This document shows positions 4,099 to 54,669 of a DNA stretch of 64,000 bases, one piece after another. The stretch lies in NCBI GenBank assembly GCA_027068075.1, contig JAMOUJ010000006.1:346706-410705 (forward strand), given 5' to 3'. The translations under genes and the position numbers were made by a program. The notes beneath the pieces are model-generated. The model ran no database searches. It saw only the letters and a list, made by a program, of their open reading frames with translations, and was not told the origin of the DNA. Source of the DNA: Candidatus Aminicenantes bacterium. Its GTDB lineage: Bacteria > Acidobacteriota > Aminicenantia > S016-38. Numbering within the stretch: position 1 is the stretch's first letter; the number at the start of each line of letters is the position of its first letter.

Positions 4099-4102
4099 GG
4101 AG

Positions 4103-5395
4103 GTGAAATTGTCTCAGGAACTCCTGGAAAAGAAGAACAGGCTGATTCCCCGGGGCGTTTACAACACCAATTCGGTTTTCGTGGAAAGGGCAGAGGGAGC
4201 GCTGATATGGGGAAAGGACGGAAGGAGGTACATAGACTTTGCCGGGGCCATAGGCTCCCTGAATGTGGGCCACTCCAACCCCAGGGTTGTGGAGGCGGTA
4301 AAGAGGCAGGCGGAGAAATTCGTCGGCTCCTGCTTCCACACCGCCATGCACGAACCTTACCTTCAGGTGGTGGAGAAACTCCTTTCCCTTTACCCCGGGG
4401 ATTTTCCCAAAAAGGGCTTTTTAGTGAACTCCGGGGCGGAGGCGGTGGAAAACGCCGTAAAAATAGCCCGCCACTTCACCTCCAGACCCAACATTCTGGT
4501 TTTTGAACACGCCTTCCACGGGAGGACCCTTCTCACCCTGGCCATGACCTCCAAGGTGATGCCCTACAAGAAGGGGTTTGGGCCCTTCCCCACGGGAATT
4601 TACAGGCTTCCGTATCCCTACTGCTACCGCTGTCCCTTTTCCCTTTCCTATTCCGACTGCGGCCTTCGCTGTGCTTCTTACATAGAGGACTTCTTCGTCA
4701 CCCATGTGGACCCCCAGGAGGTGGCGGCGGTGGTGATTGAGCCGGTCATCGGAGAAGGAGGATTCGTGATCCCTCCCAGGGAATACATGGTGAAACTCAG
4801 GGAAATCACGGAGAAATACGGAATACTTCTGGTGGCGGACGAGGTTCAGGCAGGCTTCTGCCGGACGGGAAAGTTCTTCTCCATTGAGAACTTCGGAGTG
4901 GTGCCGGACATAATAACCATAGCCAAGTCCATGGCAGGAGGGCTTCCCTTAGCGGCGGTCCTTGGTAGGGCCGAGGTTATGGACCATCCCCAGGTGGGAG
5001 GTCTGGGAGGGACCTTCGGAGGAAACCCCGTATCCTGCGCCGCTGCGGTGGCGGCCATAGATTTTGCTCTGGAGGAGAACCTCTGCGAAAGGGCGGTGGA
5101 AATAGGAGATAAGGTCCTTAAAAGGTTCTCCGCCTGGAAAGAGAGGTTCCCCTTCGTGGGGGATGTGAGGGGACTGGGGGCCATGGCCGCCTTTGAAGTG
5201 GTGAAGGTCGGAAGCAAGGACCCTGACAAGGAAACCACATCCAGGATAGTCCAGATGGCCTACGAAAGGGGCCTCCTTCTCATCTCCGCCGGGGTTTACT
5301 CCAATGTGATAAGGGTTCTCATGCCCCTGGTTATCCGGGAAGAGGAATTGGAGGAGGGTCTTTCCATCCTTGAGGAGGTTCTGGAGGAAGTATGA
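4103..5395 (+). CDS. Class III PLP-dependent aminotransferase (GabT/ArgD-like omega-aminotransferase)
   Basis: AAGGAGG RBS then GTG. Motifs LVADEVQAGFCRTGKFF and IAKSMAGGLP (PLP lysine). The length and overall layout match fold-type-I class III aminotransferases. It has an unusual 4-Cys insertion, YCYRCPFSLSYSDCGLRC. Confidence 0.8.
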   Translation: MKLSQELLEKKNRLIPRGVYNTNSVFVERAEGALIWGKDGRRYIDFAGAIGSLNVGHSNPRVVEAVKRQAEKFVGSCFHTAMHEPYLQVVEKLLSLYPGDFPKKGFLVNSGAEAVENAVKIARHFTSRPNILVFEHAFHGRTLLTLAMTSKVMPYKKGFGPFPTGIYRLPYPYCYRCPFSLSYSDCGLRCASYIEDFFVTHVDPQEVAAVVIEPVIGEGGFVIPPREYMVKLREITEKYGILLVADEVQAGFCRTGKFFSIENFGVVPDIITIAKSMAGGLPLAAVLGRAEVMDHPQVGGLGGTFGGNPVSCAAAVAAIDFALEENLCERAVEIGDKVLKRFSAWKERFPFVGDVRGLGAMAAFEVVKVGSKDPDKETTSRIVQMAYERGLLLISAGVYSNVIRVLMPLVIREEELEEGLSILEEVLEEV

Positions 5396-6552
5396 GAAAA
5401 CTGGCCCTGCTCCTCCTCTCTGCGGTTCTTCTGGCCCAGGAGGTAGGATACACGAGAATGGGGATATTCGCAGTGAGGGAGGGGGAGGGTTCCCCCTCCC
5501 TTTACCTGCCCCAGACGAGGGCCCTGGTGAAGTGGGCCCTGGAGTACGGATACGAACCTCTGGGTCCCGTCAGGATAGAGTTCCAGGGAAAACCCTTTGC
5601 CGTGAGGGGAAAATTCCGGGTAATGATCAGGGTGGACATCCCCGGGATTTTTCCGCCAAGGACGGGCCTTTCCACCTATTTCAAATTCATCCCTTCCCAG
5701 CACCTGGCCCTTTCCTCCCCCTTTCCCGTGGAAAAACCTCTTCCCTGGAAGGACTTCCTTTCGTGGCTTGAATCCTCCGGATGGAAGCCTGCCGGGTCCC
5801 CCTTCCTTTATCAAAAGGATTTGAAGGAACTCAGAAGGGGGGTCTTCCGCTGGGCCGTTCCGGTAAAAAGGCTTGGCAGGGCTTTGGTGGGGATTTATTC
5901 GGATCGGGGGGCCTTTCACCTGGGGCTTATAGTTTCCCAGAGGTTTTTCCAGACCCACGGGATCACCTACGCTCCCCTCTACAAGGATGACCTTAAAAGA
6001 AAGGAAACCTACGAGAAAATAACGGTTCTGTATTTCCCGGGGGGCTGGTCCGGATATTACACCGAGGACCTGAGAGGGCGGCCGGCGAAACTCATAAGGG
6101 AGTTCGTAAGTAGCGGAGGAAAATACCTGGGGGTCTGCGCCGGAGCCTACTTCGCCTCGGAGAAAATAATCTGGGAAGGGAAGGTTTATCGTCCTCCCTT
6201 GGGAATTTTCAGGGGGGTGGCCATAGGCCCCATAAGGGCGCTTGCCCCCTGGCCCCTGTATACGGTGGCGAAAATCCTGTATCTCGGCAGAGAGGTGGAG
6301 GCCTTTTACTACGGAGGGCCGTATTTTGAGGGTGAGGGTGAGGTCCTGGGAAAGTACGCCGTCAACGGAAAGCCGGCGGTGGTTTTGGGCGCATACGGAA
6401 AGGGAAGGGTCCTTTTATCCGGCCTCCACTTTGAGTACCAACTCACCGGTGAGGAGGACGGGGTGAAGTTTCCCGAGGACCACGGCCTCAGAACTTCGGC
6501 CCCCACCTGGCCGATTTTTAAAGACCTTATAAAAACCCTTCTGGGGAGGTGA
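5392..6552 (+). CDS. Secreted protein with class-I glutamine-amidotransferase-like (BPL_N/DJ-1-type) domain
   Basis: Signal peptide MRKLALLLLSAVLLAQE. The C-terminal half has YFPGGWSGYY...GGKYLGVCAGAYFAS, typical of the GATase1-like fold. The start is ATGA-coupled to the upstream gene. Confidence 0.4.
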   Translation: MRKLALLLLSAVLLAQEVGYTRMGIFAVREGEGSPSLYLPQTRALVKWALEYGYEPLGPVRIEFQGKPFAVRGKFRVMIRVDIPGIFPPRTGLSTYFKFIPSQHLALSSPFPVEKPLPWKDFLSWLESSGWKPAGSPFLYQKDLKELRRGVFRWAVPVKRLGRALVGIYSDRGAFHLGLIVSQRFFQTHGITYAPLYKDDLKRKETYEKITVLYFPGGWSGYYTEDLRGRPAKLIREFVSSGGKYLGVCAGAYFASEKIIWEGKVYRPPLGIFRGVAIGPIRALAPWPLYTVAKILYLGREVEAFYYGGPYFEGEGEVLGKYAVNGKPAVVLGAYGKGRVLLSGLHFEYQLTGEEDGVKFPEDHGLRTSAPTWPIFKDLIKTLLGR

Positions 6553-6554
6553 AG

Positions 6555-7319
6555 ATGGAATATCTGGCGGTGGGCGTTCAAATGATGATAGGGGATGACC
6601 TGGAGGAGAACTACCGCAGGATGAAGTTTTGGGCCGAGAGGGTGAAGTTCCTGTATCCCCACACTAAGATCCTGGTTTTCCCGGAACTTTCCCTTACAGG
6701 ACCGGTTCATCCCGGAATGGAGGAGGGGGAGGTGATAAAGAGGTTTTCCCCACTGGCGGAGGAATACGGCCTGTGGCTGGTTCCCGGAAGTTTTTACATA
6801 AAAAAGGGGGATGGGAAGGTCAACCGGGCGTACCTTTTTTCCCCGGAGGGGAAGGTGGTGGGCCACTACGACAAAATTTATCCCTGGGCTCCCTTTGAAG
6901 ATTCCCTTCCGGGAAGCCAAGTTTCGGTCTTTTCTGTGGAGGGGCTCCGGGTGGGGATAGAGATTTGCTACGACATATGGTTTCCCGAAGTGGCCTTGGA
7001 GATGGCAGCCCGGGGGGTGGACCTGATAATAAATCCCGTTATGACCACCACCGCTGATAGGGAAGGGGAGAGGGTCCTGGTGAGGGCAACCTCCCTCTTT
7101 ACCCAGTCCTACCTGCTTTCGGTAAACGGCCTTGGAAGGGGAGGGGTCGGGGGTTCATTGGGGGTTGGACCTGAGGGGGAGGTTCTCGTTGAGGCCCAGG
7201 GGGAGGAAGTTGCCCTTCCCCTGGCGGTATCCACGGAAAGGCTGAAGTCCGTTAGGGAAAGGGGAAGTTTTTCGTCCAATAGAATTTTGAAAGAATTTCT
7301 AAAAAGGAGGGAAAAATGA
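6555..7319 (+). CDS. Carbon-nitrogen hydrolase (nitrilase superfamily amidase)
   Basis: Motif GIEICYDIWFPE (catalytic Cys), Glu near the N-terminus, and a Lys consistent with an E-K-C triad. GGAGG sits 5 nt before the ATG at 6555. The track start at 6549 is a GTG two codons upstream. Confidence 0.75.
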   Translation: MEYLAVGVQMMIGDDLEENYRRMKFWAERVKFLYPHTKILVFPELSLTGPVHPGMEEGEVIKRFSPLAEEYGLWLVPGSFYIKKGDGKVNRAYLFSPEGKVVGHYDKIYPWAPFEDSLPGSQVSVFSVEGLRVGIEICYDIWFPEVALEMAARGVDLIINPVMTTTADREGERVLVRATSLFTQSYLLSVNGLGRGGVGGSLGVGPEGEVLVEAQGEEVALPLAVSTERLKSVRERGSFSSNRILKEFLKRREK

Positions 7320-17464: not shown

Positions 17465-18568
17465 TTACGAGGCTATTACGATTCTATCTCCCCCCTCCCT
17501 CTTTCCCTTGTAGAGGGCTTCGTCGGCCTTTTCCAGGAGGGCTTCCAGGTCAATGTATTCCCTCTGGAAGTTCACCTGAACTATCCCGGCGCTCAGGGAA
17601 ATGTTCAGGTCTGGAGAGTACATCTCCGAGATCTCCTTCACCTTTTCCCTGAGCCTTTCGGCTACACTTCTGGCGCCCTGGGCATCCGCATGGGGAAGGA
17701 TTACCAGAAACTCGTCGCCTCCCCACCTTCCGATGATGTCCCCTTCCCTTAGGAGTTTGCTCCATTCCCTGGAGATTTGCTGAAGTACCCTGTCCCCGAA
17801 GGCGTGGCCAAAATTATCGTTGGCCTTTTTGAAGTTGTCCAGGTCTATCAGGATTATGGAAAGGTGGGCCTGGTTCCTGGAGAAAACCTTGATGAGGAAG
17901 TTCAACCTGTCCATGAGTTCCCTTCGGTTGTAAAGCCCTGTGAGGGGATCCCTCCGCGAAAGTTCTTCCAGTCTGACGGTGTATTCCTTGAGTTTTTCGT
18001 GGGCCACCTCAAATTTTTCCATGTAGAAGAGGGCCACGATGATGACGACCAAGAGGGAGAGGATGAAACCCCAGAAGTGGTTGTAAAAAACGCATTGGGA
18101 GGATGGACAGTGCGTTATGGCCCTGGGGTTAAGCCTTTCTATCATGACCAGGAAGGAAACCACCACCACTTCACCGATCAGGAAGAAGGCCCTCCACTTT
18201 CCGGTGAATACGATGGCGGTGAGGATGCCGAAGATTATTAGAAAATAAGGGAAACCCCCAGTCATCCCTCCGTCCCTGAGCCAGAACAGGGGAGTGTAGC
18301 CGAAGAGGGCTACCCCGTAGGCCATTACTGCAGGGAAGTAAAATTTTCTGTATTTCAGGGAGATTATGTATAAAATAAGGTAAATTACGGCTCCCACCAG
18401 GCCTATCATAACCACGAATCTGCTCTTTCCCAGGGCGATGTTTATGATTACCGAGAGGATAAAGAGGATGATCATAAACAGGAGAATGGAATTTAACACC
18501 CTGTGCCTTACGCTGAACTCCCGGGGGGAGCCCAATAAGAATTCTTCCAATCTCTTCAAATATCCCAT
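17465..18568 (-). CDS. Membrane-anchored diguanylate cyclase (5-6 TM sensor + GGDEF)
   Basis: RDPLTGLYNRR ... RWGGDEFLVILP: canonical GGDEF with the active-site motif intact. Confidence 0.8.
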   Translation of the reverse strand: MGYLKRLEEFLLGSPREFSVRHRVLNSILLFMIILFILSVIINIALGKSRFVVMIGLVGAVIYLILYIISLKYRKFYFPAVMAYGVALFGYTPLFWLRDGGMTGGFPYFLIIFGILTAIVFTGKWRAFFLIGEVVVVSFLVMIERLNPRAITHCPSSQCVFYNHFWGFILSLLVVIIVALFYMEKFEVAHEKLKEYTVRLEELSRRDPLTGLYNRRELMDRLNFLIKVFSRNQAHLSIILIDLDNFKKANDNFGHAFGDRVLQQISREWSKLLREGDIIGRWGGDEFLVILPHADAQGARSVAERLREKVKEISEMYSPDLNISLSAGIVQVNFQREYIDLEALLEKADEALYKGKREGGDRIVIAS

Positions 18569-23833: not shown

Positions 23834-24679
23834 ATGACCATGAAGGATTTTTTAATCAAAACGGCCGTAAGGCTCAAGGAGAGGGGTTATTACAGGCTTT
23901 CCTTCTGGTTTTTGGAAAGGGCCAAGAAAATGGGGGCCCGGGAAAGGGCCGAGGAACTGCTGGAAAAGCAAAAACACGAATACGCCGAATACCTGCTGGA
24001 AAAGGCCAGGGATTACGAAAGGAAGGGGGATTTTACCGAAGCCCTGATCCTGGCTGAGAGGGCCGGGGAGATGGGCGAAGATGTGGACGAGGAGTGGATG
24101 GAGGACCTGAGAAAGCGCTCCAGAAAGCAGAAGGAGTTTGAAACCCGGCTTCTTTTAAATCCCGCCTCCATGGGGTTTCAATTCGCCTCCAATTATAGAA
24201 AATGGCTTTTCTCCCTCACCGGAACTCCCCATTACTCGGACCAGGACGACAGTTCAAGGAAGGTTTTGCCCCCGGAACTTCTTAAGACCTGGAAGGAGGC
24301 GTACAACAAACCGGAGAATTACGAAGCACAGTATAAACTGGCCCTGAATTTTTCCGTGTACGGTTACATCTGGGAGGCCATTTCCCAGGCCCAGAGGGCC
24401 GAAGAACTAAAGAAAACTTCGGAGGTGGAGTTCCTCCTGGGGATGCTTTACATGGAGATGGGGGACAAGGAAAAGGCCGGGGAAAAATTGACCTGCGCCG
24501 TGGAATTGGACCCGGAAAATCAAGCCGCTTATTATTTCTTGGGAAAACTTTTTCTGGACCTGGACGAGGAGGCATCCCTCCATTACCTCCGCCGGTGCAT
24601 AGAGATAGACCCCAGCAGCGATCTGGCGGAGAACGCCCTGGACCTTCTGGGTGGGATAAGGAAGGAAGTGGAGGTATAA
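23834..24679 (+). CDS. TPR-repeat protein
   Basis: Repeated 34-aa helical-hairpin pattern (AEYLLEKARDYERKGDFTEAL, AAYYFLGKLFLDL). Confidence 0.6.
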   Translation: MTMKDFLIKTAVRLKERGYYRLSFWFLERAKKMGARERAEELLEKQKHEYAEYLLEKARDYERKGDFTEALILAERAGEMGEDVDEEWMEDLRKRSRKQKEFETRLLLNPASMGFQFASNYRKWLFSLTGTPHYSDQDDSSRKVLPPELLKTWKEAYNKPENYEAQYKLALNFSVYGYIWEAISQAQRAEELKKTSEVEFLLGMLYMEMGDKEKAGEKLTCAVELDPENQAAYYFLGKLFLDLDEEASLHYLRRCIEIDPSSDLAENALDLLGGIRKEVEV

Positions 24680-24993: not shown

Positions 24994-26982
24994 ATGTTTC
25001 TGGATGAGTATTCCTTTTCCCTTTTCCTCCTCCTATCCTTCACCTTTATACTTGCCCTTTTTCTTATCCGCCTCAAAAATAAGGAAAAGTCCACCTATTT
25101 TCTTATCGGCTCCTACGCCAATATTTTCATGCTGTTTCTCTCCGGTTTTCTCGGTCTTTTGTTCCCTGACGGGCTGGGGGATAAATTTATCCTCCTCCAG
25201 TATGTGTTCGTTCACCTATCCCTGGTTTTTTTCATCCTTTTCGTCTACCATTTCCAGGGCCTATACCGGGGGAGGGAAGCCACGAAGATTTTTTACCTTT
25301 CCCTTCTTATTTTTTCGTTAATTTCCCTTTACATCTTGAAGTTGATATTTTCCAGGAAGGCGGTAAAGGGGGAGGAAATAGCATGGATCGCCATCGTGGC
25401 GGGTCTGGAGTTTCTTTGGGTCCTGGTGGTTCTGGTGAGGAAAACCCTCTTCTTCTTCCGGGGTGGAGCGAAGGATAAATCAAATCTTTTGAAGGCCAGA
25501 AGAACGAAAGTTTTTGCCTATTTGATGATTATTCCCATCGCCTTGAGTTTTTTGGTTTACCTGGGCTATCGGGGCGTTATCTCCAAAGAGGTACACAATG
25601 TATTTTTCACAGAGGGAACGGCCCTGTTCTTTTTCCTTTTCGTTTTAATGTATTTGAATCATTCCACCATCCCCGTGAGTTTGGTTTCCAAAATAGTAGG
25701 GATAACCCTGGTTTCGGCCTTGATCCTCCTGAATTTTACGGGTATGTTCTTCGTCTGGGAGGCCCGGAAGGCCTACGACAGCCTGAACCTTCAAAGGGTG
25801 AAACTCTGCCGGGAAAAACTGAGGACGGGTTCCCTGAAGGAACTTCCCTCGGATGTAAAGTACATTCTAAGGTTGAGGGGAGAAGAGTTTTTCCCCGGGG
25901 ATTTTGAAATAGTTTATTCTGCCCCCGGATGGGGAGGTACGGATTTTTTAAAGGAGGACAACCGCCTGAAAAGGGGGCGCAGGGTTAAATTCTTTTCCAG
26001 GGTGGAGAGGCTCGTGAAAAATACCCTCCACAGGGATCCGATGTATTTTTCCTATTTTTTCCCGTTGAGGGGAGGGGTTTATGAGGTGGGAATTTCGTCC
26101 ATGGCCTACAGGAAGCACATCCATCGTCTGGTTCTCAAGTTAATTTCGCTTTCCCTTTTCATATTCCTCTCCATTGTCTTTGTATTTCCCCGATTCTTTA
26201 AAAACTGCATAATAAATCCCGTGGACCAACTTCTCGGGGCCGCCCGGGAGATAGAAAGGGGAAACCTCAACCTGGAGGTTCCTGTGATGGTCCGCGACGA
26301 ATTTGGAATCCTCTCCGAAGCCTTTAACAACATGGCTTCTTCCCTGAGAAACTCCCGGGAGAAAATCCTGGAATACAGCAGAACCCTGGAGAGAAAAGTG
26401 GTTGAGAGAACCAGGGACCTTATGGAGAAAAACAGGATGCTTTCCCAGATGAAAAGGAGGCTGGAGGAGGCGGCCATCACCGATCCTTTGACCGGCCTTC
26501 TCAACAGGAGGGGGCTTTATCAACTCATAGAGCACGAGATGCGCAGGGCCAGGAGAAAGGGGAGTTGCTTCAGTTTGATAATCTGCGACATAGACGATTT
26601 TAAAAGAATCAACGACACCTATGGTCACGATTGTGGAGATAATGTTTTGCGAACCATAGCCCGTCTCCTTGAGGACAACTCCAGAAAGGTGGATCGGGTG
26701 GGCAGGTGGGGTGGGGAGGAATTTCTTATGGTACTTCCGGAAACCCCTCTGGACGGAGCCGTTGAGGTGGCGGAGAAGATAAGGAGGGTGATTGAGGCCA
26801 GGGAATTTCATTATGGAAAGGTATCTTTCCGGGTTACCATGACCTTCGGTATTTCCCTGTTTTCCTCTGCTACCCCATCCCTCCATCACTGCCTTAAAGA
26901 AGCCGACGACGCCCTCTACCGCGGTAAGTTTCTGGGGAAAAACACGGTGGTGGTATGGGAAAGGAATGTTCAGGAGTCCTGA
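24994..26982 (+). CDS. Sensor diguanylate cyclase: polytopic membrane sensor, HAMP, then GGDEF (GGEEF variant)
   Basis: About 8 TM N-terminal region. HAMP-like segment (EFGILSEAFNNMASSL). DPLTGLLNRRG...RWGGEEFLMVLP. Confidence 0.8.
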   Translation: MFLDEYSFSLFLLLSFTFILALFLIRLKNKEKSTYFLIGSYANIFMLFLSGFLGLLFPDGLGDKFILLQYVFVHLSLVFFILFVYHFQGLYRGREATKIFYLSLLIFSLISLYILKLIFSRKAVKGEEIAWIAIVAGLEFLWVLVVLVRKTLFFFRGGAKDKSNLLKARRTKVFAYLMIIPIALSFLVYLGYRGVISKEVHNVFFTEGTALFFFLFVLMYLNHSTIPVSLVSKIVGITLVSALILLNFTGMFFVWEARKAYDSLNLQRVKLCREKLRTGSLKELPSDVKYILRLRGEEFFPGDFEIVYSAPGWGGTDFLKEDNRLKRGRRVKFFSRVERLVKNTLHRDPMYFSYFFPLRGGVYEVGISSMAYRKHIHRLVLKLISLSLFIFLSIVFVFPRFFKNCIINPVDQLLGAAREIERGNLNLEVPVMVRDEFGILSEAFNNMASSLRNSREKILEYSRTLERKVVERTRDLMEKNRMLSQMKRRLEEAAITDPLTGLLNRRGLYQLIEHEMRRARRKGSCFSLIICDIDDFKRINDTYGHDCGDNVLRTIARLLEDNSRKVDRVGRWGGEEFLMVLPETPLDGAVEVAEKIRRVIEAREFHYGKVSFRVTMTFGISLFSSATPSLHHCLKEADDALYRGKFLGKNTVVVWERNVQES

Positions 26983-27830
26983 AGCACGGCCCTGATCATG
27001 GCCTTCAAATTGATCGTATAGGCCTCTTTGGGCTGGCGGAGTCCAAGTTTCTGGTACTCGTTTTTGTAAATCTCCTCGGCCACCCTTTCCGGGTCTCCCC
27101 ACCTGGCGTAGAGTTTTAGAATTTCCTCCCGGAATTCCCGGGTCCTTTCCATGGACTTTTCAAGAAATTCCTTTCCCCGGGGAAATATTCCCCCGTGTCC
27201 CAGCCCCAGGGAGAAGTGGGAGTAGGTCATGATTTTTTTCAGGGAATCCAGGTATTGGGAGTAATTGGAGAGAAATTGTGGCCTTATGTGCCCGTCGTCT
27301 ATAACCCCGGCGGCGTCCCCCACGAATATTATTTCCTTCTCCTGAAAAGCGAAGGATATGGAACATCTCGTATGTCCCGGGGTTTCCAGGACGAAAAACT
27401 CGTCCAGCCCCTCCCCTTCCCCCAGGACCACATCCACGGAGAAGGGTTCAAACTCGTCTTCGGAGCGGACACCGAAGACCCTTTCCGCTTCCCTCTCCAG
27501 TTTTTTTATCAACTCCACGGCCCTGGGTTTCTTAAGGACCTCGGCGGTCCTGGCAGAAGAAACGATTTTCATGTGGGGGAAGCGTTTTTTCAAAACTGGA
27601 GCGGCCCCCACATGGTCGTAATGGGAGTGGGTAAGGAGAAGGAAATGGGGTTCCACCTCCAATTTCTCCAGGTCCTTCAGGATTTTTCGGCCCATGAAGG
27701 TAAAGGCTGAATCTACGAGGTAGTTCTTTTTGCCCCGTATTAAATAGACGGGGACCTCAGGAGCGTTCAAAAGGTAAATTCCGTCCCTGAATTCTCCCGT
27801 TCTGCTGAACATGTTTTTAATATACCACAT
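26970..27830 (-). CDS. Metallo-beta-lactamase-fold hydrolase
   Basis: THSHYDHVGA motif (HxHxDH) with downstream His/Asp ligands. Confidence 0.75.
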   Translation of the reverse strand: MWYIKNMFSRTGEFRDGIYLLNAPEVPVYLIRGKKNYLVDSAFTFMGRKILKDLEKLEVEPHFLLLTHSHYDHVGAAPVLKKRFPHMKIVSSARTAEVLKKPRAVELIKKLEREAERVFGVRSEDEFEPFSVDVVLGEGEGLDEFFVLETPGHTRCSISFAFQEKEIIFVGDAAGVIDDGHIRPQFLSNYSQYLDSLKKIMTYSHFSLGLGHGGIFPRGKEFLEKSMERTREFREEILKLYARWGDPERVAEEIYKNEYQKLGLRQPKEAYTINLKAMIRAVLQDS

Positions 27831-27856
27831 AGAGCCTTATGTGATATAATCATAGC

Positions 27857-28450
27857 ATGAAATTTCTCGGAATAAACGGCTCCAGTAGAAAGGATGGGTT
27901 ATCCAACAAACTTCTACAGATCGCTTCCAGGGAGTTTTCCCGTCTCGGACACGATTTTGAGGTTCTTCACCTGGTGGATTACAGGGTTGAATACTGCCGG
28001 GGCTGCGTTTCTGAGGACATTTCCCTGTGCACGCCGAAAAAATGTTACGAAATAGGGGACGATTTTGAGAAAATAGCCCGGAAAATGATCGGGAGCCAGG
28101 GAATCGTTTTTTCCACCCCCGTCTACTGGTATGCTCCCTCCGCCAGGCTGTGGGCCCTCATAGAGAGGATGACCTCCCTGGAGAACACCCCCCGGAAATA
28201 TCTGGAGGGAAAACCGGTGGGGGTGGTGGCGGCGGCAGGGGAAGATGGAGCCCAGAGCGCCATAACCAATCTGGTGGTACCCCTTATCCACATGGGGATG
28301 CTGGTGCTTCCCTTCGGGATGACTTATTTTTCCGGGAAAGAGGACGACCCTGAAACCGTCCGCTACATAGAAAGAATGGTTAAGAACATGATTTTTGCCG
28401 CCGAAAAATTGAAAGGTTATTCGTGGTGGCAAAGCAGGGAGGCTGACTGA
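27857..28450 (+). CDS. Iron-sulfur flavoprotein (Isf-like NADPH-dependent FMN reductase, flavodoxin fold)
   Basis: N-terminal GINGSSRKDG flavodoxin-like FMN site plus compact Cys cluster CRGCVSEDISLCTPKKC (CX2CX7CX4C), as in Isf proteins. Confidence 0.6.
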   Translation: MKFLGINGSSRKDGLSNKLLQIASREFSRLGHDFEVLHLVDYRVEYCRGCVSEDISLCTPKKCYEIGDDFEKIARKMIGSQGIVFSTPVYWYAPSARLWALIERMTSLENTPRKYLEGKPVGVVAAAGEDGAQSAITNLVVPLIHMGMLVLPFGMTYFSGKEDDPETVRYIERMVKNMIFAAEKLKGYSWWQSREAD

Positions 28451-29505
28451 TGCCTATTTTAAATTACACCTCTAAAGAAATAACAGTAAAAATCGTTTAC
28501 TACGGGCCTGCCCTTTCCGGCAAGACCACCAATGTGAAGTATATTTCCAGCATCCTTCCCGAGGAGAAACGGGGAAAGATGGTCACCCTCCCCACCAAGG
28601 AGGACAGGACCCTCTTCTTTGATTTTCTCCCCTTTTCCCTGGGGGGAAAGGCGGGATACAAGATAAGGCTTCAACTTTACACCGTCCCCGGGCAGGTTAT
28701 CTACGATTCCACCCGAAGGCTGGTCCTTCAGGGGGCAGACGGCGTGGTCTTCGTGGCCGATTCCCAAAAGGCCCTTTTGGAAAACAACCGGGATAGTTTG
28801 GAAAACATGAAGGCAAATTTGAAGAGAAACGGCTTGAACTACCAGAAAATCCCCCTGGTTCTTCAGTACAACAAGAGGGACCTGCCCAACATACTTTCCG
28901 TGGAGGAACTGGATGCTGCCCTGAACGAACTTTCCAGGGAGTCGGTTCCTGCCATCGCCATAAGGGGAGAGGGGGTGGTGGAAACCCTGGCCAAGATCGC
29001 TGAACTCACCCTGCGGGACCTACAGACCCGATACACCGTCCTTGAAGACATGGATGTGGAAACCCTGATTGAGGAGTTGAAGTCCTTTGAGAGCGTGGAA
29101 AAACCCTTTGAGGCCTTCCCCTGGGAAGGGGACCTGCCCGAGGAACTTTCCGAGGACGAGCCCTTCACCGAGAGTCTTCCTGAGGAAACCCAGGAGGAAA
29201 TCTCCCCCACGGAGGTTGAGTCCATAATCTCTCCGGATGTGGAGGTGGAGGAAGAGTTTGAGGAGTTTCTGGACACATCGGAGGATTTGAGCGAAGCGGT
29301 AAAGGGTCAGGAGGCGGAAGTTTACGATTCTGATTTTCCCGTGGAAGTTCCCGAGGACCAATTTGATAATCTTCTGGGCCGTGTTGAAAGCAGGCTCAAA
29401 AAGGTGGTCCAGGAAATCCCCATTAACATCAAGGTGAAGGAAGGGGAGGAAATTGAACTGATCCTTAAGTTTAAGATAAAGGTGAAAAAGTCAGGAGAGG
29501 AATAA
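28450..29505 (+). CDS. mglA: MglA-type small Ras-like GTPase with 155-aa acidic C-terminal extension
   Basis: G1 GPALSGKTT. LYTVPGQV block, close to the MglA switch II as I remember it. NKRD (G4). The MglA-like core ends at about residue 195. The tail is dominated by E/D/S/P. Confidence 0.7.
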   Translation: MPILNYTSKEITVKIVYYGPALSGKTTNVKYISSILPEEKRGKMVTLPTKEDRTLFFDFLPFSLGGKAGYKIRLQLYTVPGQVIYDSTRRLVLQGADGVVFVADSQKALLENNRDSLENMKANLKRNGLNYQKIPLVLQYNKRDLPNILSVEELDAALNELSRESVPAIAIRGEGVVETLAKIAELTLRDLQTRYTVLEDMDVETLIEELKSFESVEKPFEAFPWEGDLPEELSEDEPFTESLPEETQEEISPTEVESIISPDVEVEEEFEEFLDTSEDLSEAVKGQEAEVYDSDFPVEVPEDQFDNLLGRVESRLKKVVQEIPINIKVKEGEEIELILKFKIKVKKSGEE

Positions 29506-30267
29506 TTCCACCGGTTCCCCTATTCCTGCATTGAGAACCTGGGCGGCGGAGCCCATTCTCACGGCAATTTCCAGGTAACCGAAACTGTTTATCACGAAGG
29601 CCAGTTCGTTGGGCGGAATTTCCATGAAGGTTCTGGCGAAGTGGGAGATCTTCACCCCCTTTATTGAACCGAAGAGGATTTTTTTATTCCCGAGGTCTTC
29701 CTGCCTTATGTTGAGGGCCAGGTTTCCAAAGCGGTCCACATGGATTACGATCCCCCGAATTTTGTTCCCCTCCCTTTTCGGCTGGGGAAGTTTGAACTTA
29801 CGGTAGTTTTCCGTCCTGGTTCCAAACCTCTCCACCGGAATTCCCTTGGAAAGCCAGGCGGCCACCGGGGCCATTTTATCCCGGGCTTCAAAGGTGGAAC
29901 TGGGTTCCGGCAGGAAGAAGTGGGTTTCCGTCACTTCGTAAACCGTCGGTTCCTCCGGCCGCTGATAAACCGGGGCGAAAACACCGTTGTCCGGGCCTAT
30001 GTAGTATTTCCCCTCGGAGGAGATGAGGAGGATCTTTCTGTCCGTTCCCACCCCGGGATCCACCACGGTGAGGAAGATGGTACCCCTGGGGAAATAATCC
30101 ATTACCCCGGAGAGGACATAGGCGGCGGATATGGGGTGAAAGGGAATAATCTCGTGGGATATGTCCACGATTTTAGCCTCAGGATTTATTGAAAGAATAA
30201 CTCCCTTCATGGCCCCCACATAGGGGTCTTTGATTCCGAAGTCGGTTATAAGCGCAATGGTTCTCAT
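29491..30267 (-). CDS. SAM hydroxide adenosyltransferase family (DUF62, fluorinase/chlorinase-like)
   Basis: N-terminus TDFGIKDPYVGAMKGVILSINPEAKIVDISHEI is the signature of the DUF62 family. Confidence 0.8.
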   Translation of the reverse strand: MRTIALITDFGIKDPYVGAMKGVILSINPEAKIVDISHEIIPFHPISAAYVLSGVMDYFPRGTIFLTVVDPGVGTDRKILLISSEGKYYIGPDNGVFAPVYQRPEEPTVYEVTETHFFLPEPSSTFEARDKMAPVAAWLSKGIPVERFGTRTENYRKFKLPQPKREGNKIRGIVIHVDRFGNLALNIRQEDLGNKKILFGSIKGVKISHFARTFMEIPPNELAFVINSFGYLEIAVRMGSAAQVLNAGIGEPVELFLS

Positions 30268-30299: not shown

Positions 30300-31475
30300 T
30301 CAAGATAGGTTTTTAGATTTATCTTCGTACATTAGCCGGTCGGCCTTTTTGAAGGCTTCGTAGAAGGGGGTTTTTTCGCTGAATACGCTGATCCCCACGG
30401 AGATGGAAAGGGGAATGTGGTGGGAAGAAGCCTTGCTCAATTCGGCCTTTAACCTTTTCACTCTGCCTTTTACGGCCTCCAGGGGTCCCCCGGTTATTAC
30501 CAGGAACTCGTCTCCCCCGTAGCGGAATATTCCGTCCTCTTTCCTGAAACTGGAGAGGAGGAGTTCGGAGATCCTTCTCAGGCATCGGTCCCCTGCCGTA
30601 TGGCCCCATCTGTCGTTTATTTTTTTGAAGTTGTCTATGTCAATGAAGACGATGACCCCCTTCTTTTCCTTCAGGGTGTTTATGAAGGAGCGAAGTTTTC
30701 TTCTGTTGTAAAGGCCGGTGAGGGGGTCTATGTCAACCAGGTGACGGAGTTTTGCCCGGCTTATCTCCAGTTCCTTCACGGTGTTCTCCAGTTGGGACAG
30801 GGTCCTTAGAAAGACCACCGTGAGAAAACTTATGCCCAGTATGAGTTCAAAGCCCGCATCGTAGAAGGATATTCTGCTCATTACCCCGGAAATTTTCAGG
30901 CCAACGAAATAGGGAAGGAGCACGATGCCGTGGTGTAAGAAGACCGCGCCGTAAAGCAACAGCACCAGAGAAAGAATGAGGGAGGCGGGAGTTCCACCCC
31001 CAAGCCATTCCTTGAGGCCGAAGATCGCTCCGAGGGTGGCCAATAAACCCACGGTGAGAAACACCGTGGCCTGAATGTGAACCGAGGTGGCCCGGAAAAA
31101 CATGAATACCACCGTGGCGAAGGCCACGAGAAGGATTATCTGGGTTGTCCTCTGTATTCTTTTAGTACTGTACCCCTTTATGAATTGGAAAAAACCCAGG
31201 AGGATAAAATAGATAAAGGCCAATTTGAAAAAGGAGTAGAAAGTATAGAGCATCCTGGTGTAGGGGGTTCCCTCGTGTTTGCCCACCACCATGAGAACGG
31301 AGGTAAGGGCCAGAAGGTCGCTGCTCCACGCCACGGTCCAGTATTTGAGAATGTCCCTTTTGGTTATAATCCACCCGGTGAGGAAGAAGAAGCCGATGAT
31401 GAAGATTATTATGCTTTGAAAGAGTATGGAGGCGTGGGTGAGGCTCACCTCCATGGTAGTAGGTTCTGCAGGCAT
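30300..31475 (-). CDS. Membrane-anchored diguanylate cyclase (7-8 TM + GGDEF)
   Basis: DPLTGLYNRRKL ... FRYGGDEFLVITGG. Confidence 0.75.
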   Translation of the reverse strand: MPAEPTTMEVSLTHASILFQSIIIFIIGFFFLTGWIITKRDILKYWTVAWSSDLLALTSVLMVVGKHEGTPYTRMLYTFYSFFKLAFIYFILLGFFQFIKGYSTKRIQRTTQIILLVAFATVVFMFFRATSVHIQATVFLTVGLLATLGAIFGLKEWLGGGTPASLILSLVLLLYGAVFLHHGIVLLPYFVGLKISGVMSRISFYDAGFELILGISFLTVVFLRTLSQLENTVKELEISRAKLRHLVDIDPLTGLYNRRKLRSFINTLKEKKGVIVFIDIDNFKKINDRWGHTAGDRCLRRISELLLSSFRKEDGIFRYGGDEFLVITGGPLEAVKGRVKRLKAELSKASSHHIPLSISVGISVFSEKTPFYEAFKKADRLMYEDKSKNLS

Positions 31476-31483
31476 CTTCCCGA

Positions 31484-33586
31484 CTACTTCAAGTTCACGA
31501 GGTAAACATCTTTTCTGGAAGGGAGGTAGAGAAAGATTCTGGATACGGATGGATTGCGGAGAATTATTTTGTTGTCTTCCACATATACGGGAAGAATAGA
31601 GTCGCCCTTAAGAATGTATGCGGTGGTGGTGGGATCCTTGAGAAGGAGAAAGGAATTAAGGTTTCCCAGGGAACTCCACAGATAATCGGTTAGCCTTTCG
31701 GTATCGTCCCTTTTGGGGTCGTAGAGGTAAAGTCTCTTTTTCCCCTCGTCGTCGCCGGCGAGAAAATACAGTTTTTCGTTTAAATAAACCGCATCCCCCA
31801 TTTTTTTCTCAAGTTTCCTGAACTTCCTCTGCCTTTCCCAGAATATGTAACCCCTCCCTCCATCGTTGCGGCACACGAAGCCTGCCCTGTCCTTCATCCA
31901 GGCCAGAAATTCGTATTCCTCCTTCCCCTCCTTTATTCTTAACGGTTTCCACACCCCCTCCTTTATGTAACCCAGGAGGAATTTTTTCTCCCCGCTCACC
32001 CTGTAGACTACGGCGTCCTGGGAATCTCCCAGAAAATCTATTTTCACGGTTTCGCTGGCCACCGAAGAATGGGTGTCTATGATGCTGCGGAAATCCGGAT
32101 TTTCCCGGTAAAGGGATTTGAGGAGGGCATACCTGGAAAGGGGAAGGGGCATAAAGGGCAGGGCCTTTAAACTTCTTATTTTCCTGCTCCGGCGGGTTTT
32201 CAGGTTGTAGTCTATGAAGAGGAAGGGAAATTTTGGGGAATAAAGGGGATAGTAATTTCTTAGATTTACGATTTTTTTGAAGGGGGATTGGAAAGGCAGG
32301 GTCAAGAAATCCTCAGAATACACCAGGAGGTGGTCTCCCCTTATTTCCCCCACGAATTTTTCCTCGGTAAGGCGCATCACCACGGCCCTCCTGGGCTTTT
32401 TCATCTCATTCCATATGTAGAAACTTCTTCTTCCCCTTATTCTGTTCACCACGGAAATTACCAGGGTTTTCCCGTCCTTCTGGGGATAAAAATCCTCCAC
32501 CTCACCCCTCAGGGGAATGGGCACCTGAAGGCCAGTTTCGGGGTTCCAGAGGTAAAGGCCGTAGGTATCCGTTCCCTTTACCCTTCCCAGCACCACCAGG
32601 TTTTCGTCCCCCAGCCATTTGGCCATGTCTATTTTTATTACCCTGAGCCTTTTCACCCCGAAGAGATTGGGAACATCCCCGCCGTTGAAGAATGAGAGGT
32701 AAAGGTATTTGAGTTTTCTCTCCCTCTTTTTCTCGCACCGGGCCAACCAATCCCATACGAAGTGGTCTTCCGGTCGGTAAAGGGAAAGTTTGGTGAGTAT
32801 TTTCTTTGCCCGGCGGCACTTTCCGTTCCTTACCAGAAAATAGGCTTCAATTTCGCTGGACAGAAGGGGATCGGAGACCAGGGGCTGAACTTCCTTCACC
32901 ATGTAATCCCTCTCCAGGGTGAAGGCGAAATCCATCATCAGGGAAACCACCTGGGGGGTCTTGGGAAGGGTTTTCAGGAGTTCCCATCCCTGGATAAGGT
33001 CCCCCCTTTCCTTGTAGGCCCTTGCCAATTCCACGCCCAGTTCCGGAAACCTGTATTCTTCAAAGATCTCCCGGGCCTTTTCCAGATCTCCCTTCTGGAT
33101 GTAAACCCTGGAGAGAAAGAGGGCAAATATTCCGTCCTTGAGTTTTTTTACCGCCAGCGAGAGGCGTTTTTCCGCCCTCTTCAAGTTCCCCATTTGAAGG
33201 TCGTAGACGCCCTGAACGAAGATAACGATGGGGGAATTGGGGGCAAACTCTCTGGCTTTAGCGGCGAACCATTCCCTTTGAAAATATCCGAGTTCCGAGG
33301 CCGCCAGGGAGAGGCCCAGGTATTTAAGCCATTCGTATTTCCCGTAGTAGGAGGTTCTGCTTTCCTTGCGGTAAGAGTTAAAGGCCAGGGAGGCTTCCAT
33401 AAACTGTCCCTGGGCCAGTTTTCGGAATCCCCGGGCGATGGGGTCCCTGCGGGAAGAAAAATACTTGTTCCACAGTTCTCCGGCGGTTTGAAGGTCTCCT
33501 TTGAGATAATAAGCGATGCCCTTTTCCAGGAGGTTGGCAGATAGTGCGAAGCCAACCATAAGAATTAAAGCGAGAACTTTCCTCAT
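31484..33586 (-). CDS. Exported TPR plus beta-propeller (PD40/TolB-like) protein
   Basis: Signal peptide. N-terminal TPR-like helices. C-terminal repeated LYLWNPETG / LYLYDPKRD strand-turn motifs typical of propeller blades. It sits 8 nt upstream of the GGDEF gene. Confidence 0.45.
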   Translation of the reverse strand: MRKVLALILMVGFALSANLLEKGIAYYLKGDLQTAGELWNKYFSSRRDPIARGFRKLAQGQFMEASLAFNSYRKESRTSYYGKYEWLKYLGLSLAASELGYFQREWFAAKAREFAPNSPIVIFVQGVYDLQMGNLKRAEKRLSLAVKKLKDGIFALFLSRVYIQKGDLEKAREIFEEYRFPELGVELARAYKERGDLIQGWELLKTLPKTPQVVSLMMDFAFTLERDYMVKEVQPLVSDPLLSSEIEAYFLVRNGKCRRAKKILTKLSLYRPEDHFVWDWLARCEKKRERKLKYLYLSFFNGGDVPNLFGVKRLRVIKIDMAKWLGDENLVVLGRVKGTDTYGLYLWNPETGLQVPIPLRGEVEDFYPQKDGKTLVISVVNRIRGRRSFYIWNEMKKPRRAVVMRLTEEKFVGEIRGDHLLVYSEDFLTLPFQSPFKKIVNLRNYYPLYSPKFPFLFIDYNLKTRRSRKIRSLKALPFMPLPLSRYALLKSLYRENPDFRSIIDTHSSVASETVKIDFLGDSQDAVVYRVSGEKKFLLGYIKEGVWKPLRIKEGKEEYEFLAWMKDRAGFVCRNDGGRGYIFWERQRKFRKLEKKMGDAVYLNEKLYFLAGDDEGKKRLYLYDPKRDDTERLTDYLWSSLGNLNSFLLLKDPTTTAYILKGDSILPVYVEDNKIILRNPSVSRIFLYLPSRKDVYLVNLK

Positions 33587-52980: not shown

Positions 52981-54165
52981 TTAAAAAAGTTTCCCCGCCC
53001 GGCGGAAAACGAATAGTTTGCTTTCCTTCTCCTGCTTTTCTCCCAGAAACCTTACCGCGGAGAACCCGAACCTCCTCCTTATCCTCTCCACGGCATCCAT
53101 CATCCTCTCCTCCCGGGGAGTGAAAAGCAGGGTTTGTTCGGCATAGGTGAGGGAAGAGGCTTCCACCGCCAGAAGCCTTACGGGCCTGCCGTCCATCATT
53201 TTTTCCGCCAGGGAAATTGCCTTGTGGTATATTCTCAGGGCATCGTTGCCCGGAGGGGATAGGGGAAGACATTTCTGGGATTCGGAAAAATCCGACCACC
53301 TTATTCTCAGGCATACCCTTCCTCCCCTGGCGCCCTCCTCCCGGAGCCTCATGGCCACGCAATCGCTGAGGTGAAGGATATGGGGTTTTGCCTCCTTAAG
53401 GGTAAAGATGTCCCTTTCCAGGGTTTGTCCCCGGGATACCGACCTGGGTTTTTCCGGTGAAAGTATGGGAACCTGGTTCTCCCGCCGTAGCGTTTCCCGG
53501 AGGTTTTCCCCCTTTCTCCCCAGGAGGCCTCGCAGGTTCTGGACCGAGACTCCCCTTAGGTCTGCCACGGAGGATATTCCCCTTTCCCTCAGCAAGGTGA
53601 GGGTTTTTTGGCCTATTCCCGGGATTTCCTCCAGTTGGAAACTCTCCAGGAATTGCTCCGTTTTTTCCGGGGGAATGTGAAGAAAGCCGTCGGGTTTTGC
53701 CCGGGAAGCCGCCAGTTTTGCCACCAGTTTGGTAGGACCCATCCCTGCGGAGACCGTGAGACCCAGTTGTGTTTTTATCTCCTCCCTTTTTTCCCGGAGG
53801 GAGGCCACGGGATCCCGATAAATAAGGCCACAGCGGGAGAGGTCCACCACGCCTTCGTCCTGGGAGATGATCTCCAGGTCCGGGCTTATGGAGTAGAGGA
53901 GTCGGTAGAATTTTCTTGAGAACTCCTGATACAGGGGAAAATTCGGTTTTACTACCAGGCACCGGGGACAAAGCCTGAGGGCCTGAAAGAGGGGCATGCC
54001 CGATTTTACTCCGTAGGCCCTGGCTTCGTAGGACGCCGAAGCCACCACCGACCGGCGGAGGGAGTTCCCGCCCACTATTACGGGTTTTCCCCGCAGGGCA
54101 GGGTTTTTGACCTGTTCCACCTGGGCGTAAAAGGCATCAATGTCAAAATGAGCGAACAACCCCAT
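52981..54165 (-). CDS. dinB: DNA polymerase IV (Y-family translesion polymerase)
   Basis: The N-terminus FAHFDIDAFYAQVEQVKNPALRGKPVIVGG is the Y-family signature. I chose Met65 of the track ORF as the start, because the longer N-terminal extension is Pro/Lys-rich non-domain sequence and would run across an intrinsic terminator. Confidence 0.8.
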   Translation of the reverse strand: MGLFAHFDIDAFYAQVEQVKNPALRGKPVIVGGNSLRRSVVASASYEARAYGVKSGMPLFQALRLCPRCLVVKPNFPLYQEFSRKFYRLLYSISPDLEIISQDEGVVDLSRCGLIYRDPVASLREKREEIKTQLGLTVSAGMGPTKLVAKLAASRAKPDGFLHIPPEKTEQFLESFQLEEIPGIGQKTLTLLRERGISSVADLRGVSVQNLRGLLGRKGENLRETLRRENQVPILSPEKPRSVSRGQTLERDIFTLKEAKPHILHLSDCVAMRLREEGARGGRVCLRIRWSDFSESQKCLPLSPPGNDALRIYHKAISLAEKMMDGRPVRLLAVEASSLTYAEQTLLFTPREERMMDAVERIRRRFGFSAVRFLGEKQEKESKLFVFRRAGKLF

Positions 54166-54190
54166 CGGTAATATTTTATCCCCCGGGAGT

Positions 54191-54224
54191 AAAATAAAAA
54201 ACCCCGCCCTCCGAGAGGGCGGGG
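54191..54224 (-). terminator. Rho-independent terminator after the FmdB-like gene
   Basis: Perfect 9-bp stem CCCCGCCCT/AGGGCGGGG with a 5-nt loop, followed on the minus strand by TTTTTTATTTT. Confidence 0.75.
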
Positions 54225-54256
54225 CGAGGAGGTGGGAGTGAGAAGGATTCAGGAGG

Positions 54257-54514
54257 TCAGGTTGGGTTTTGGGGTTTGGTTTTGGGGGGAGAATCTTTGG
54301 TTTTGTTTTTAGGGGAGTGTTTTGTTCCGTTGTCTTTACCCTTGTAGTCCGTAACATACCATCCGCTTCCCTTGAAGTGGATGGCAGGAGGTGAAAGGAT
54401 TTTCTTCAGGGGTCCGCCGCATTTGGGGCAGACCTTTAACGGCTCGTCGTCAAATTTCTGAATGACTTCAAATCTATATCCGCACTTCTCACAAGTGTAT
54501 TCGTAAAGCGGCAT
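54257..54514 (-). CDS. FmdB-family zinc-ribbon protein
   Basis: MPLYEYTCEKCG...CPKCGG: the two CxxC pairs of the FmdB putative-regulatory family. Basic, low-complexity tail. Confidence 0.7.
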   Translation of the reverse strand: MPLYEYTCEKCGYRFEVIQKFDDEPLKVCPKCGGPLKKILSPPAIHFKGSGWYVTDYKGKDNGTKHSPKNKTKDSPPKTKPQNPT

Positions 54515-54552
54515 CTTTACCTCCCGGCAAAATTATAACATTCTGGTCAATA

Positions 54553-54580
54553 TTGACAAGGGAGCCAATTTTGATAAAAT
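54553..54580 (+). promoter_or_regulatory. Sigma70-type promoter for tRNA-Arg (TTGACA-16-TAAAAT), with the -35 inside the palindrome GTCAATATTGAC
   Basis: TTGACA at 54553..54558 and TAAAAT at 54575..54580. The tRNA 5' end is 10 nt downstream. Confidence 0.55.
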
Positions 54581-54590
54581 ACACTTCGGT

Positions 54591-54664
54591 GCGGCTGTAG
54601 CTCAACAGGATAGAGCGTGGGATTCCTAATCCCAAGGTTGTGGGTTCGATTCCCGCCAGCCGCA
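54591..54664 (+). tRNA. tRNA-Arg (anticodon CCT)
   Basis: Hand-folded cloverleaf. 7-bp acceptor stem (GCGGCTG/CAGCCGC), D stem GCTC/GAGC, anticodon stem TGGGA/TCCCA with loop TTCCTAA (CCT), T stem GTGGG/CCCGC with TTCGATT loop, discriminator A. No encoded CCA. Confidence 0.9.
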
Positions 54665-54669
54665 CTTAA
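54621..54669 (+). repeat. Direct repeat copy 1 (49 bp): tRNA-Arg 3' half plus 5 nt; attL-like
   Basis: GATTCCTAATCCCAAGGTTGTGGGTTCGATTCCCGCCAGCCGCACTTAA. It is identical to the copy at 56339..56387. Confidence 0.85.

Follow-up and report, generated by a model that had tools for sequence, protein, structure and literature searches.

A two-gene operon of an Aminicenantes-like bacterium, located within a stretch of 64,000 nucleotides (64 kb; in the following the window, i.e. the whole DNA that was analysed), codes for a flavoprotein and, as its second gene, for a group-1 MglA-type Ras-like GTPase of 351 residues. To our knowledge, MglA is the reference bacterial Ras-like polarity switch and all that is known of its cycle depends on MglB, which acts as GTPase-activating protein (GAP) and guanine-nucleotide exchange factor (GEF), and on RomR/RomX. 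The GTPase from the window, here termed the window protein, belongs to a large subfamily of long MglAs which never adjoined MglB in the sampled loci and which is positioned outside the MglB-coupled clade. By its sequence, the tail which follows the G domain is a real, conserved module. Our preferred reading, to which we assign a probability of roughly 0.55, is that the window protein is an MglB-independent MglA variant in which a C-terminal motif on an acidic tether fixes the G domain.

The G domain is that of a group-1 MglA

The identity of the core as a group-1 MglA G domain is secure. In a phmmer search of PDB sequences residues 1-192 matched the M. xanthus MglA without a gap (2e-63, 218 bits) and the T. 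thermophilus MglA was matched at 5e-57. The top non-MglA chain was an Arf-like GTPase (4e-4, 23 bits). Pfam, which has no MglA model, returned a weak Arf match of 26 bits, and the small_GTP match in NCBIfam stayed below threshold. The AlphaFold2 (AF2) model had a predicted local distance difference test score (pLDDT) of >90 over most core residues. In Foldseek it was aligned with MglA structures at target-normalised template modelling scores of 0.90-0.95 and root-mean-square deviations of 1.3-2.3 Å, whereas Ras, Arf and Rab chains reached target-normalised scores of 0.66-0.79. A first-pass annotation, made from the letters of the sequence alone, had proposed an MglA-type core and had named a better fit to generic Ras or Arf families as the objection to be feared. 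The core was clearly closer to MglA by both measures, and the objection failed. The motifs which had led to the proposal were all located, GPALSGKTT starting at residue 19, DFLP at 58, LYTVPGQV at 76, NKRD at 141 and, at the far end of the protein, KFKIKVKK at 340.

The Ras-superfamily signatures GxxxxGK[ST] and [NT]KxD are represented by G19-PALS-G24-K25-T26 and N141-K-R-D144. Group-1 MglAs are distinguished by an Arg finger directly before the G2 Thr, by TVPGQ and by NKxD (PMC4316618). The window protein has the stretch DRTLFFDFLP, its intrinsic Arg finger R53 directly precedes the G2 residue T54, both being invariant in 73 aligned homologues, and its G3 motif is TVPGQ instead of DxxGQ, within LYTVPGQV at residues 76-83. 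With 351 residues it exceeds the size range of 150-240 residues used in the MglA survey.

Compared with the structurally characterized MglAs from M. xanthus and T. thermophilus (6H17, 6IZW, 3T12), the G domain shows ~55-58% identity in a gap-free alignment of 192 residues, and P-loop, R53, T54, TVPGQ with Q82, and NKRD are common to all. Those proteins have ~195 residues. The window protein differs from them by its 156-residue tail, by the lack of an mglB within 64 kb, by the exchanges Gly21Ala, Lys181Ala and Lys185Glu, by Val in place of both C13 and F177, and by its position outside the MglB-coupled clade.

Long MglAs do not adjoin MglB in the sampled loci

The window was searched for MglB in three ways. 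No Robl_LC7 match was obtained with Pfam among the small open reading frames (ORFs) of the window, two bona fide MglBs from canonical mglBA loci (L002, L003) gave a best E-value of 0.73 in phmmer, and a hidden Markov model (HMM) from 86 MglB sequences gave a best E-value of 1.1 against the six-frame translation. The claim of the first-pass annotation that MglB is lacking nearby thus held across the entire window. A Roadblock domain is not fused to the tail either, as the E-value of the mglA ORF with the MglB HMM was 11.

Then, 92 MglA loci were compared: the window itself, 11 which had been retrieved by way of homologues and 80 from metagenomes. When the long form was defined by a tail of at least 80 residues, 47 loci were long and 38 short. 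MglB was absent from the available flanks of all 47 long forms, 32 of which had at least 700 bp on both sides, and it was present within 500 bp in 34 of the 38 short forms. Restricted to usable flanks, linkage was 0/32 for long and 34/35 for short forms (Fisher p=2e-18). The split persisted in a set dereplicated at 80% core identity (0/22 long vs 12/13 short, p=2e-8). A neighbor-joining tree built from the G domains united all short forms coupled to MglB, M. xanthus MglA among them, in a single clade, with the long forms outside of it. Two short MglAs of ~200 residues without an adjoining MglB (L016, L068) were placed among the long forms in the core tree; these may be long MglAs minus tail.

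An ordinary MglA with a passenger tail could account for part of these data. MglB and RomR would be encoded at unlinked sites, the protein would serve classical motility polarity, the tail would be neutral or solubilising, and the synteny with the flavoprotein accidental. Such a protein would be expected to look as the core does, with every catalytic residue of the G domain kept, and orphan MglAs are known: in the reference survey 59 of 449 had no link to MglB (PMC4316618). Of the genome, 64 kb were read, and of related contigs 10 kb to either side. Yet the division into long and short forms mirrors MglB linkage almost perfectly, and the core phylogeny as well, which is not anticipated for a passenger. 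Together with the properties of tail, core and operon described below, this makes the explanation highly improbable.

A literature search for tailed MglAs yielded nothing relevant and no description of a long-MglA subfamily was found. Probably, this is because the main MglA survey left out every sequence of more than 240 residues (PMC4316618).

An acidic linker leads to a conserved C-terminal motif

A search of 5.8e9 proteins retrieved many MglA homologues of 290-460 residues beside the usual forms of ~200 residues. About 100 of these long MglAs had a common layout of G domain, acidic linker and a C-terminal motif of ~30 residues. This recurrence of the full-length architecture in dozens of homologues ruled out a chance ORF. 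In the window protein the 156 residues after position 195 contain 25% Glu, 7% Asp, 8% Ser and 6% Pro and carry a net charge of -36; the core has a net charge of about +5. The first-pass annotation had described a tail of 155 residues dominated by Glu, Asp, Ser and Pro. The dominance of Glu stands; the length is 156, and Asp, Ser and Pro are matched in frequency by Val, Leu and Lys.

Three segments of the tail behave differently. The post-core segment, for which AF2 predicted a helix, was 33-62% identical in the close clade and 5-14% further out, i.e. it is kept only in the nearest relatives. The linker carries a net charge of -4 to -10 per block of 20 residues and was 8-50% identical to that of the window protein, with insertions and deletions; core identity across the family was 57-92%. 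In the alignments, linkers of long MglAs were acidic and Pro-rich with ELPxxEEL-type short motifs, and the tripeptides EEL, ELE and EIP were more common than in shuffled tails. A disorder prediction for the tail had been suggested at the outset, and AF2 left the acidic linker at pLDDT values mostly <50. The rapid evolution of the linker would suit a passenger tail. The third segment, the C-terminal motif, would not: its alignment is gapless in most members, even where overall identity drops to ~40%, and it is confined to the family.

In the window protein this motif reads EIPINIKVKEGEEIELILKFKIKVKK. Two runs of alternating hydrophobic residues flank a turn and are followed by a basic end. The consensus is (E)IP(I/V)x(I/L)x(V/L), a turn of 4-7 residues and (I/V)xLx(I/L)x(I/L)x(I/V), with an invariant Pro and usually a basic end. 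Identity was 34-86% without gaps in most long homologues; the three most distant ones were at 14-24%, with 0-3 gaps. Among 98 distinct long-MglA tails the median net charge was -20, with -10 or lower in 82%; in 69% the last 20 residues had a positive net charge. Within the last 25 residues, 93% of these tails vs 7% of shuffles had an alternating hydrophobic run of at least 4. The conserved motif, the helix and the common layout indicate that the tail is more than low complexity.

When 1.84e9 representative proteins were searched with a profile of the motif, 37 hits were obtained. Almost all were C-terminal fragments of long MglAs; of three additional marginal hits two were inspected and were chance matches in repeat proteins. 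The motif thus looks specific to the long-MglA subfamily. A mobile module shared with other architectures had been considered and was rejected because the profile hits were essentially long MglAs only. Seven diverse tails matched no Pfam family consistently at E<=1, what was returned being noise.

Some long MglAs have other endings in place of the EIPIxI motif. All are hydrophobic or amphipathic and most have a basic end: a 20-residue hydrophobic helix resembling a transmembrane segment in P0098, and, distributed over three sets of loci (L023/L026/L031/L053/L063, L025/L044/L047/L051/L072 and L054/L066/L082/L087), the types ...KKSWFKF, ...AKRFKVVVKGFKK and ...LLLRLNIALNAKE.

Structure prediction was carried out for the window protein with 73 sequences and for P0084, a shorter member of the family, with 68. 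Docking of the tail on the core was not reproducible in these AF2 models. That the motif forms a β-hairpin is a reading of its residue pattern. Core and tail charges were anticorrelated (rho=-0.48, p=0.001, a statistic which ignores phylogeny); this is compatible with an anchor as well as with a regulator acting in cis. The possibility that cores of long MglAs are generally more basic than those of short ones was dismissed (means 0.82 vs -0.13, p=0.24).

Core positions relevant for MglB are substituted

P-loop Gly21, which corresponds to G12 in Ras, is Ala in the window protein, in its whole clade and in 15 of 73 aligned sequences. In M. xanthus MglA the exchange G21V lowers hydrolysis (PMC3983030). 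Bdellovibrio MglA has S21, lacks MglB and was proposed to be GTP-locked, and five species with A/S21 have no MglB (PMC3983030). Lys181 in helix α5 touches the acidic C-terminal helix of MglB in structure 6IZW (PMC6785124). All 35 MglB-coupled forms in the sample have K/R at this position; in the window clade it is Ala. In addition, Lys185 is replaced by Glu and Ile67 by Lys in the window protein. A21 and the loss of K181 fit an MglA which no longer answers to MglB; two changes at MglB-relevant positions also argue against an ordinary MglA with a passenger tail.

The positions which separate short from long cores were C13, F177, R161 and S2, none of them in the switch regions. C13 and F177 were invariant in 35 MglB-coupled short MglAs, and positions 13, 177 and 181 varied in long MglAs; of these three a role is known for K181 only, the contact to the MglB C-terminal helix. 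The window protein has V13 (28486-28488), V177 (28978-28980) and A181 (28990-28992).

Could the acidic tail itself be a built-in regulator? In MglB a D/E-rich C-terminal helix, and in RomR a Glu-rich tail, binds to the α5/β2-β3 pocket of MglA and promotes nucleotide exchange (PMC6785124). A tail which mimics them in cis might allow self-contained cycling, in line with the suggestion of the first-pass annotation that MglA paralogs with fused tails may be self-contained. Like them the window tail is acidic, with acidic/aromatic stretches such as EEEFEEFLD, and ELPxxEEL-type and EEEFEEF-type acidic/hydrophobic segments are conserved among the strongly charged tails of the family. However, MglB helix and RomR tail act in trans on K181/K185 and L64/I67 (PMC6785124), and the window protein has Ala, Glu and Lys in place of K181, K185 and I67. 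K181 and K185 are kept in many long MglAs, e.g. in the der-linked L009 and L010, where the pocket might be used. The lack of MglB at all long-form loci, the charge anticorrelation and a pLDDT of ~80 for the C-terminal segment in the window model would agree with a regulator in cis; the disordered linker, the lack of reproducible docking, the equal mean core charge of long and short forms and a tail devoid of Roadblock or any other domain would not. A21, moreover, predicts slow hydrolysis rather than self-stimulated cycling. Taken as a whole, a built-in regulator appears quite improbable.

Two known MglA-type proteins invite comparison. SofG, an orphan MglA paralogue of M. xanthus, has terminal extensions, and nothing indicates an EIPIxI...IxLxIxI motif in it. 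It resembles the window protein as a group-1 member which is uncoupled from MglB and has an intrinsic Arg finger (PMC4316618). The orphan MglA of Bdellovibrio bacteriovorus shares with the window protein a substituted P-loop Gly21 and the lack of an adjacent MglB (PMC3983030). In contrast to the window protein it is a short, single-domain protein without acidic tail or C-terminal motif.

A proposed MglB-independent MglA with a C-terminal anchor

According to the favoured MglB-independent, tethered MglA, the protein would operate as a nucleotide switch without MglB as GAP or GEF, with R53, T54, Q82 and NKRD intact. In the window clade, A21 and the lost K181 pocket would entail slow hydrolysis and no response to MglB, and the protein would be mostly GTP-bound. 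The G domain would be attached to the membrane, to a pole or to a partner by the C-terminal motif, to which a long, flexible and acidic tether connects it, and the acidic tail may modulate the core electrostatically. The flavoprotein with its four Cys would be a lineage-specific partner or a co-regulated gene, without being typical of the subfamily as a whole. The alternative endings, i.e. the transmembrane helix of P0098, KKSWFKF and AKRFKVVVKGFKK, look like anchors and support an anchoring role.

Several points weigh against this reading. The pattern of the motif looks β-type, unlike a classical amphipathic-helix membrane anchor, and in the AF2 models it had a pLDDT of ~80 in the window protein and of 54-60 in P0084, with no strands assigned by DSSP in either. 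Anionic membranes would repel the strongly acidic linker. Hairpin formation, docking and membrane binding of the motif are hypothetical. Most long MglAs retain G21 and many K181 and K185, and the effects of A21 and K181A are extrapolated from Ras, M. xanthus and Bdellovibrio. The 80 metagenome loci were those with the closest matches to the query, and they are mutually related; the neighbor-joining tree was midpoint-rooted and carries no support values. An unlinked MglB or a second canonical MglA may exist elsewhere in the genome, of which the 64 kb of the window were read. Finally, no motility, RomR/RomX or type IV pilus gene was among the ~48 window ORFs scanned with Pfam, several ORFs being unscanned.

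The design has a parallel in eukaryotic small GTPases, in which a G domain is followed by a flexible, poorly conserved linker and a short basic terminal targeting element, as in the window protein; in Ran, an acidic tail is able to fold back on the core. Unlike these, the window protein has no CAAX or other lipidation signal, a far longer acidic linker and a β-type end. This is analogy, not homology.

In a tentative and somewhat unlikely extension, long MglAs would be an old and widespread sister group to the MglB-coupled forms and would carry the regulator or anchor in cis, with inputs that differ between lineages, the four-Cys flavoprotein here and GAF-GGDEF enzymes of cyclic di-GMP metabolism or Der elsewhere. 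They would cycle or localise without any Roadblock GAP and constitute a second prokaryotic small-GTPase design. The long branch, which is outside the main survey, is maybe about as diverse as the canonical one; it provided 47 of the 92 sampled loci, in a sample biased to relatives of the query. It combines a preserved catalytic machinery and consistent absence of MglB with a conserved tail module. If the tail anchors or regulates in cis, a small GTPase would be controlled without a separate GAP, and, if true, bacteria would have a counterpart to the linker-plus-anchor design of Ras, Rho and Rab. The lineage-specific operons with flavoprotein, GAF-GGDEF or der genes are candidates for inputs and effectors in uncultivated phyla such as Aminicenantes.

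The flavoprotein operon is lineage-specific

The first-pass annotation had noted that the mglA start overlaps the stop of the flavoprotein gene. This was correct: at position 28450 the TGA stop and the ATG of mglA overlap by 1 nt, the junction being GGGAGGCTGACTGATGCC / GGGAGGCTGACTGATG. A GGAGG-type Shine-Dalgarno sequence precedes mglA in 6 of 6 orthologous loci (for positions see Table 1). Upstream of the flavoprotein gene a TGnTATAAT-like box ends exactly 6 nt before the ATG in 5 of 6 distinct orthologous loci (window, L001, L004, L006, L008, L012), L008 having TATAAA at the same spacing. A generic scan for -35/-10 promoters had no match at this box. Because a distance of 6 nt leaves no space for a 5' untranslated region or a Shine-Dalgarno sequence, the operon mRNA is probably leaderless, and flavoprotein and MglA are probably expressed from one leaderless bicistronic transcript.

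In 8 loci (window, L001, L004/L005, L006/L007, L008, L012), with mglA identities down to 51%, long mglA was immediately preceded by the flavoprotein gene in the same orientation, the two genes overlapping or being at most 3 nt apart. L001 is a metagenome-assembled genome of Aminicenantes with 72% identity. In L008 the pair is preserved amid entirely different outer genes. The order in the conserved cluster is a divergent metallo-β-lactamase (MBL)-fold hydrolase, the flavoprotein and long mglA. Conservation of the pair in relatives, which the first-pass annotation had left to be examined, was thus seen as an operon in 8 loci, and it was confined to one lineage: the other 39 long-MglA loci do not have it.

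The flavoprotein had been called an Isf-like FMN/Fe-S protein. Of this, the FMN_red/flavodoxin fold, expected to bind FMN, and four Cys, invariant in six orthologues of 62-86% identity, were verified. The Cys spacing, CX2CX7CX4C, differs from the iron-sulfur flavoprotein (Isf) motif CX2CX2CX5-7C (PMC3164229), and the PDB search returned no Isf structure at E<0.01. Membership in the Isf family was rejected on these two grounds. The best PDB match was the flavone reductase FLR (7d38), and WrbA-type proteins were also among the nearest by sequence. FLR and Isf share with the flavoprotein the fold and a compact Cys cluster after the second strand. FLR aligns with residues 1-105, including the first CX2C; unlike the flavoprotein of 197 residues, it is an ene-reductase of 310 residues (PMC7862272).

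These data bear on a third alternative, a redox-coupled switch. The redox state of flavin or Fe-S cluster might control the GTPase, or the GTPase might position or regulate the flavoprotein, with the MBL-fold hydrolase maybe included. The tight gene pair in 8 loci, also in L008 with its different outer neighbours, the invariant Cys residues and an MBL gene conserved divergently at position -2 in 7 loci are what such a switch would require, and a -10 box conserved at a distance of 6 nt from the flavoprotein ATG, together with a separate Shine-Dalgarno sequence of mglA, points to co-transcription. The conservation of operon and promoter geometry in 8 loci is also at odds with an accidental synteny. 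Yet the pair is restricted to one lineage, and of the 39 long-MglA loci without it several have der or a GAF-GGDEF gene next to mglA. In the nearest outgroup the flavoprotein gene follows that of RNase R, and a homologue with 41% identity was found in yet another context. A fusion of flavoprotein and MglA was not encountered, the tail motif occurs independently of the flavoprotein, the Fe-S site is putative and the Cys spacing is not that of Isf. A redox switch is therefore unlikely. The general redox-coupled polarity switch advanced in the first-pass annotation was not sustained, operon membership being its sole support.

The RNase R context recurs. In L092/L093 the nearest flavoprotein outgroup (193 residues, 55-59% identity) overlaps the stop of the RNase R gene (3836-6582 and 3809-6582) in two contexts which differ in other respects; this is a second conserved pairing of this flavoprotein family.

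Table 1. Features of the flavoprotein-mglA locus, in positions of the window.
Feature	Position	Strand	Description	Basis
MBL-fold hydrolase (HSHYDH)	26970..27830	-	divergent, 26 bp from flavoprotein start	Pfam Lactamase_B 6e-22
Extended -10 promoter-like box TGATATAAT	27842..27850	+	ends 6 nt before flavoprotein ATG	read from sequence
Flavoprotein gene, first in operon	27857..28450	+	197 aa, FMN_red / flavodoxin fold	Pfam FMN_red 5e-27, Flavodoxin_2 2e-10
Four-Cys cluster C47-X2-C50-X7-C58-X4-C63	27995..28045	+	putative metal or Fe-S site	
Shine-Dalgarno GGGAGG of mglA	28437..28442	+	within flavoprotein 3' end, 7 nt upstream of ATG	
Long mglA ORF	28450-29505	+	351 aa	
MglA group-1 G domain, aa 1-195	28450..29034	+		sequence match, AF2, Foldseek
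P-loop GPALSGKTT; A21 codon	28510-28512 (A21 codon)	+		
Arg finger R53 + T54	28606-28611	+		
G3 TVPGQ	28681-28695	+		
G4 NKRD	28870-28881	+		
Post-core segment, aa 196-216	29035..29097	+	helix 203-215; block pLDDT 95 then 75	AF2
Acidic disordered linker, aa 217-318	29098..29403	+	fast-evolving; ELP/EEL-type acidic short motifs	
Conserved C-terminal motif, aa 319-347, VVQEIPINIKVKEGEEIELILKFKIKVKK	29404..29490	+	invariant Pro, basic end	
(R)-SAM hydrolase-type gene SAM_HAT	29491..30267	-	convergent	Pfam SAM_HAT_N 2e-53, SAM_HAT_C; NCBIfam

Neighbouring genes

The MBL-fold hydrolase, at position -2 in 7 loci, had the PqsE thioesterase as top PDB match (5e-20). A pairing of a flavodiiron-like MBL domain with a flavodoxin was considered and dropped because the protein has the Zn-type HSHYDH and resembles PqsE-type thioesterases. 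Downstream, the SAM_HAT gene was at position +1 in 7 loci and missing in L008. Its 3' end and that of mglA overlap by 15 nt (29491-29505), an overlap which was also present in L001, L004 and L006; no terminator-like site was detected between the two genes.

In other branches long mglA has other neighbours. The gene der/engA, which codes for a GTPase of ribosome assembly, was immediately upstream (2-114 nt) in L009, L010, L011 and L033; as these four loci are on distant branches of the core tree, the der-mglA context may be ancestral. A gene for a GAF-GGDEF protein of the diguanylate-cyclase type adjoined long mglA, co-directional and at a distance of 2-3 nt, in seven loci from two subgroups (gene -1 in L023, L026, L031, L053 and L063; gene +1 in L030 and L050). 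In the window, three GGDEF genes are within 14 kb of the locus, at 17465-18568 (-), 24994-26982 (+) and 30300-31475 (-). This hints at a link of long MglAs to cyclic di-GMP signalling and is reminiscent of MglA and CdgA in Bdellovibrio, where MglA works with a TPR protein and a GGDEF-type cyclic di-GMP receptor (PMC3983030). TPR and GGDEF genes flank mglA in the window as well, but these neighbours are only partly conserved in the window clade. A TPR protein of 281 residues (23834-24679, +) was conserved upstream of the cluster in L001, L004/L005 and L012, and in L006 at a distance of 2.8 kb; a TPR-containing protein of 700 residues (31484-33586, -) was downstream in L001 and L004/L005.

At some distance from the operon, positions 54001-56000 have a GC content of 0.41 vs ~0.52. 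The genes in this stretch code for a HicB-type antitoxin (55445-55972, -) and a weakly SecB-like ORF (55032-55466, -), possibly as parts of a small mobile or toxin-antitoxin island.

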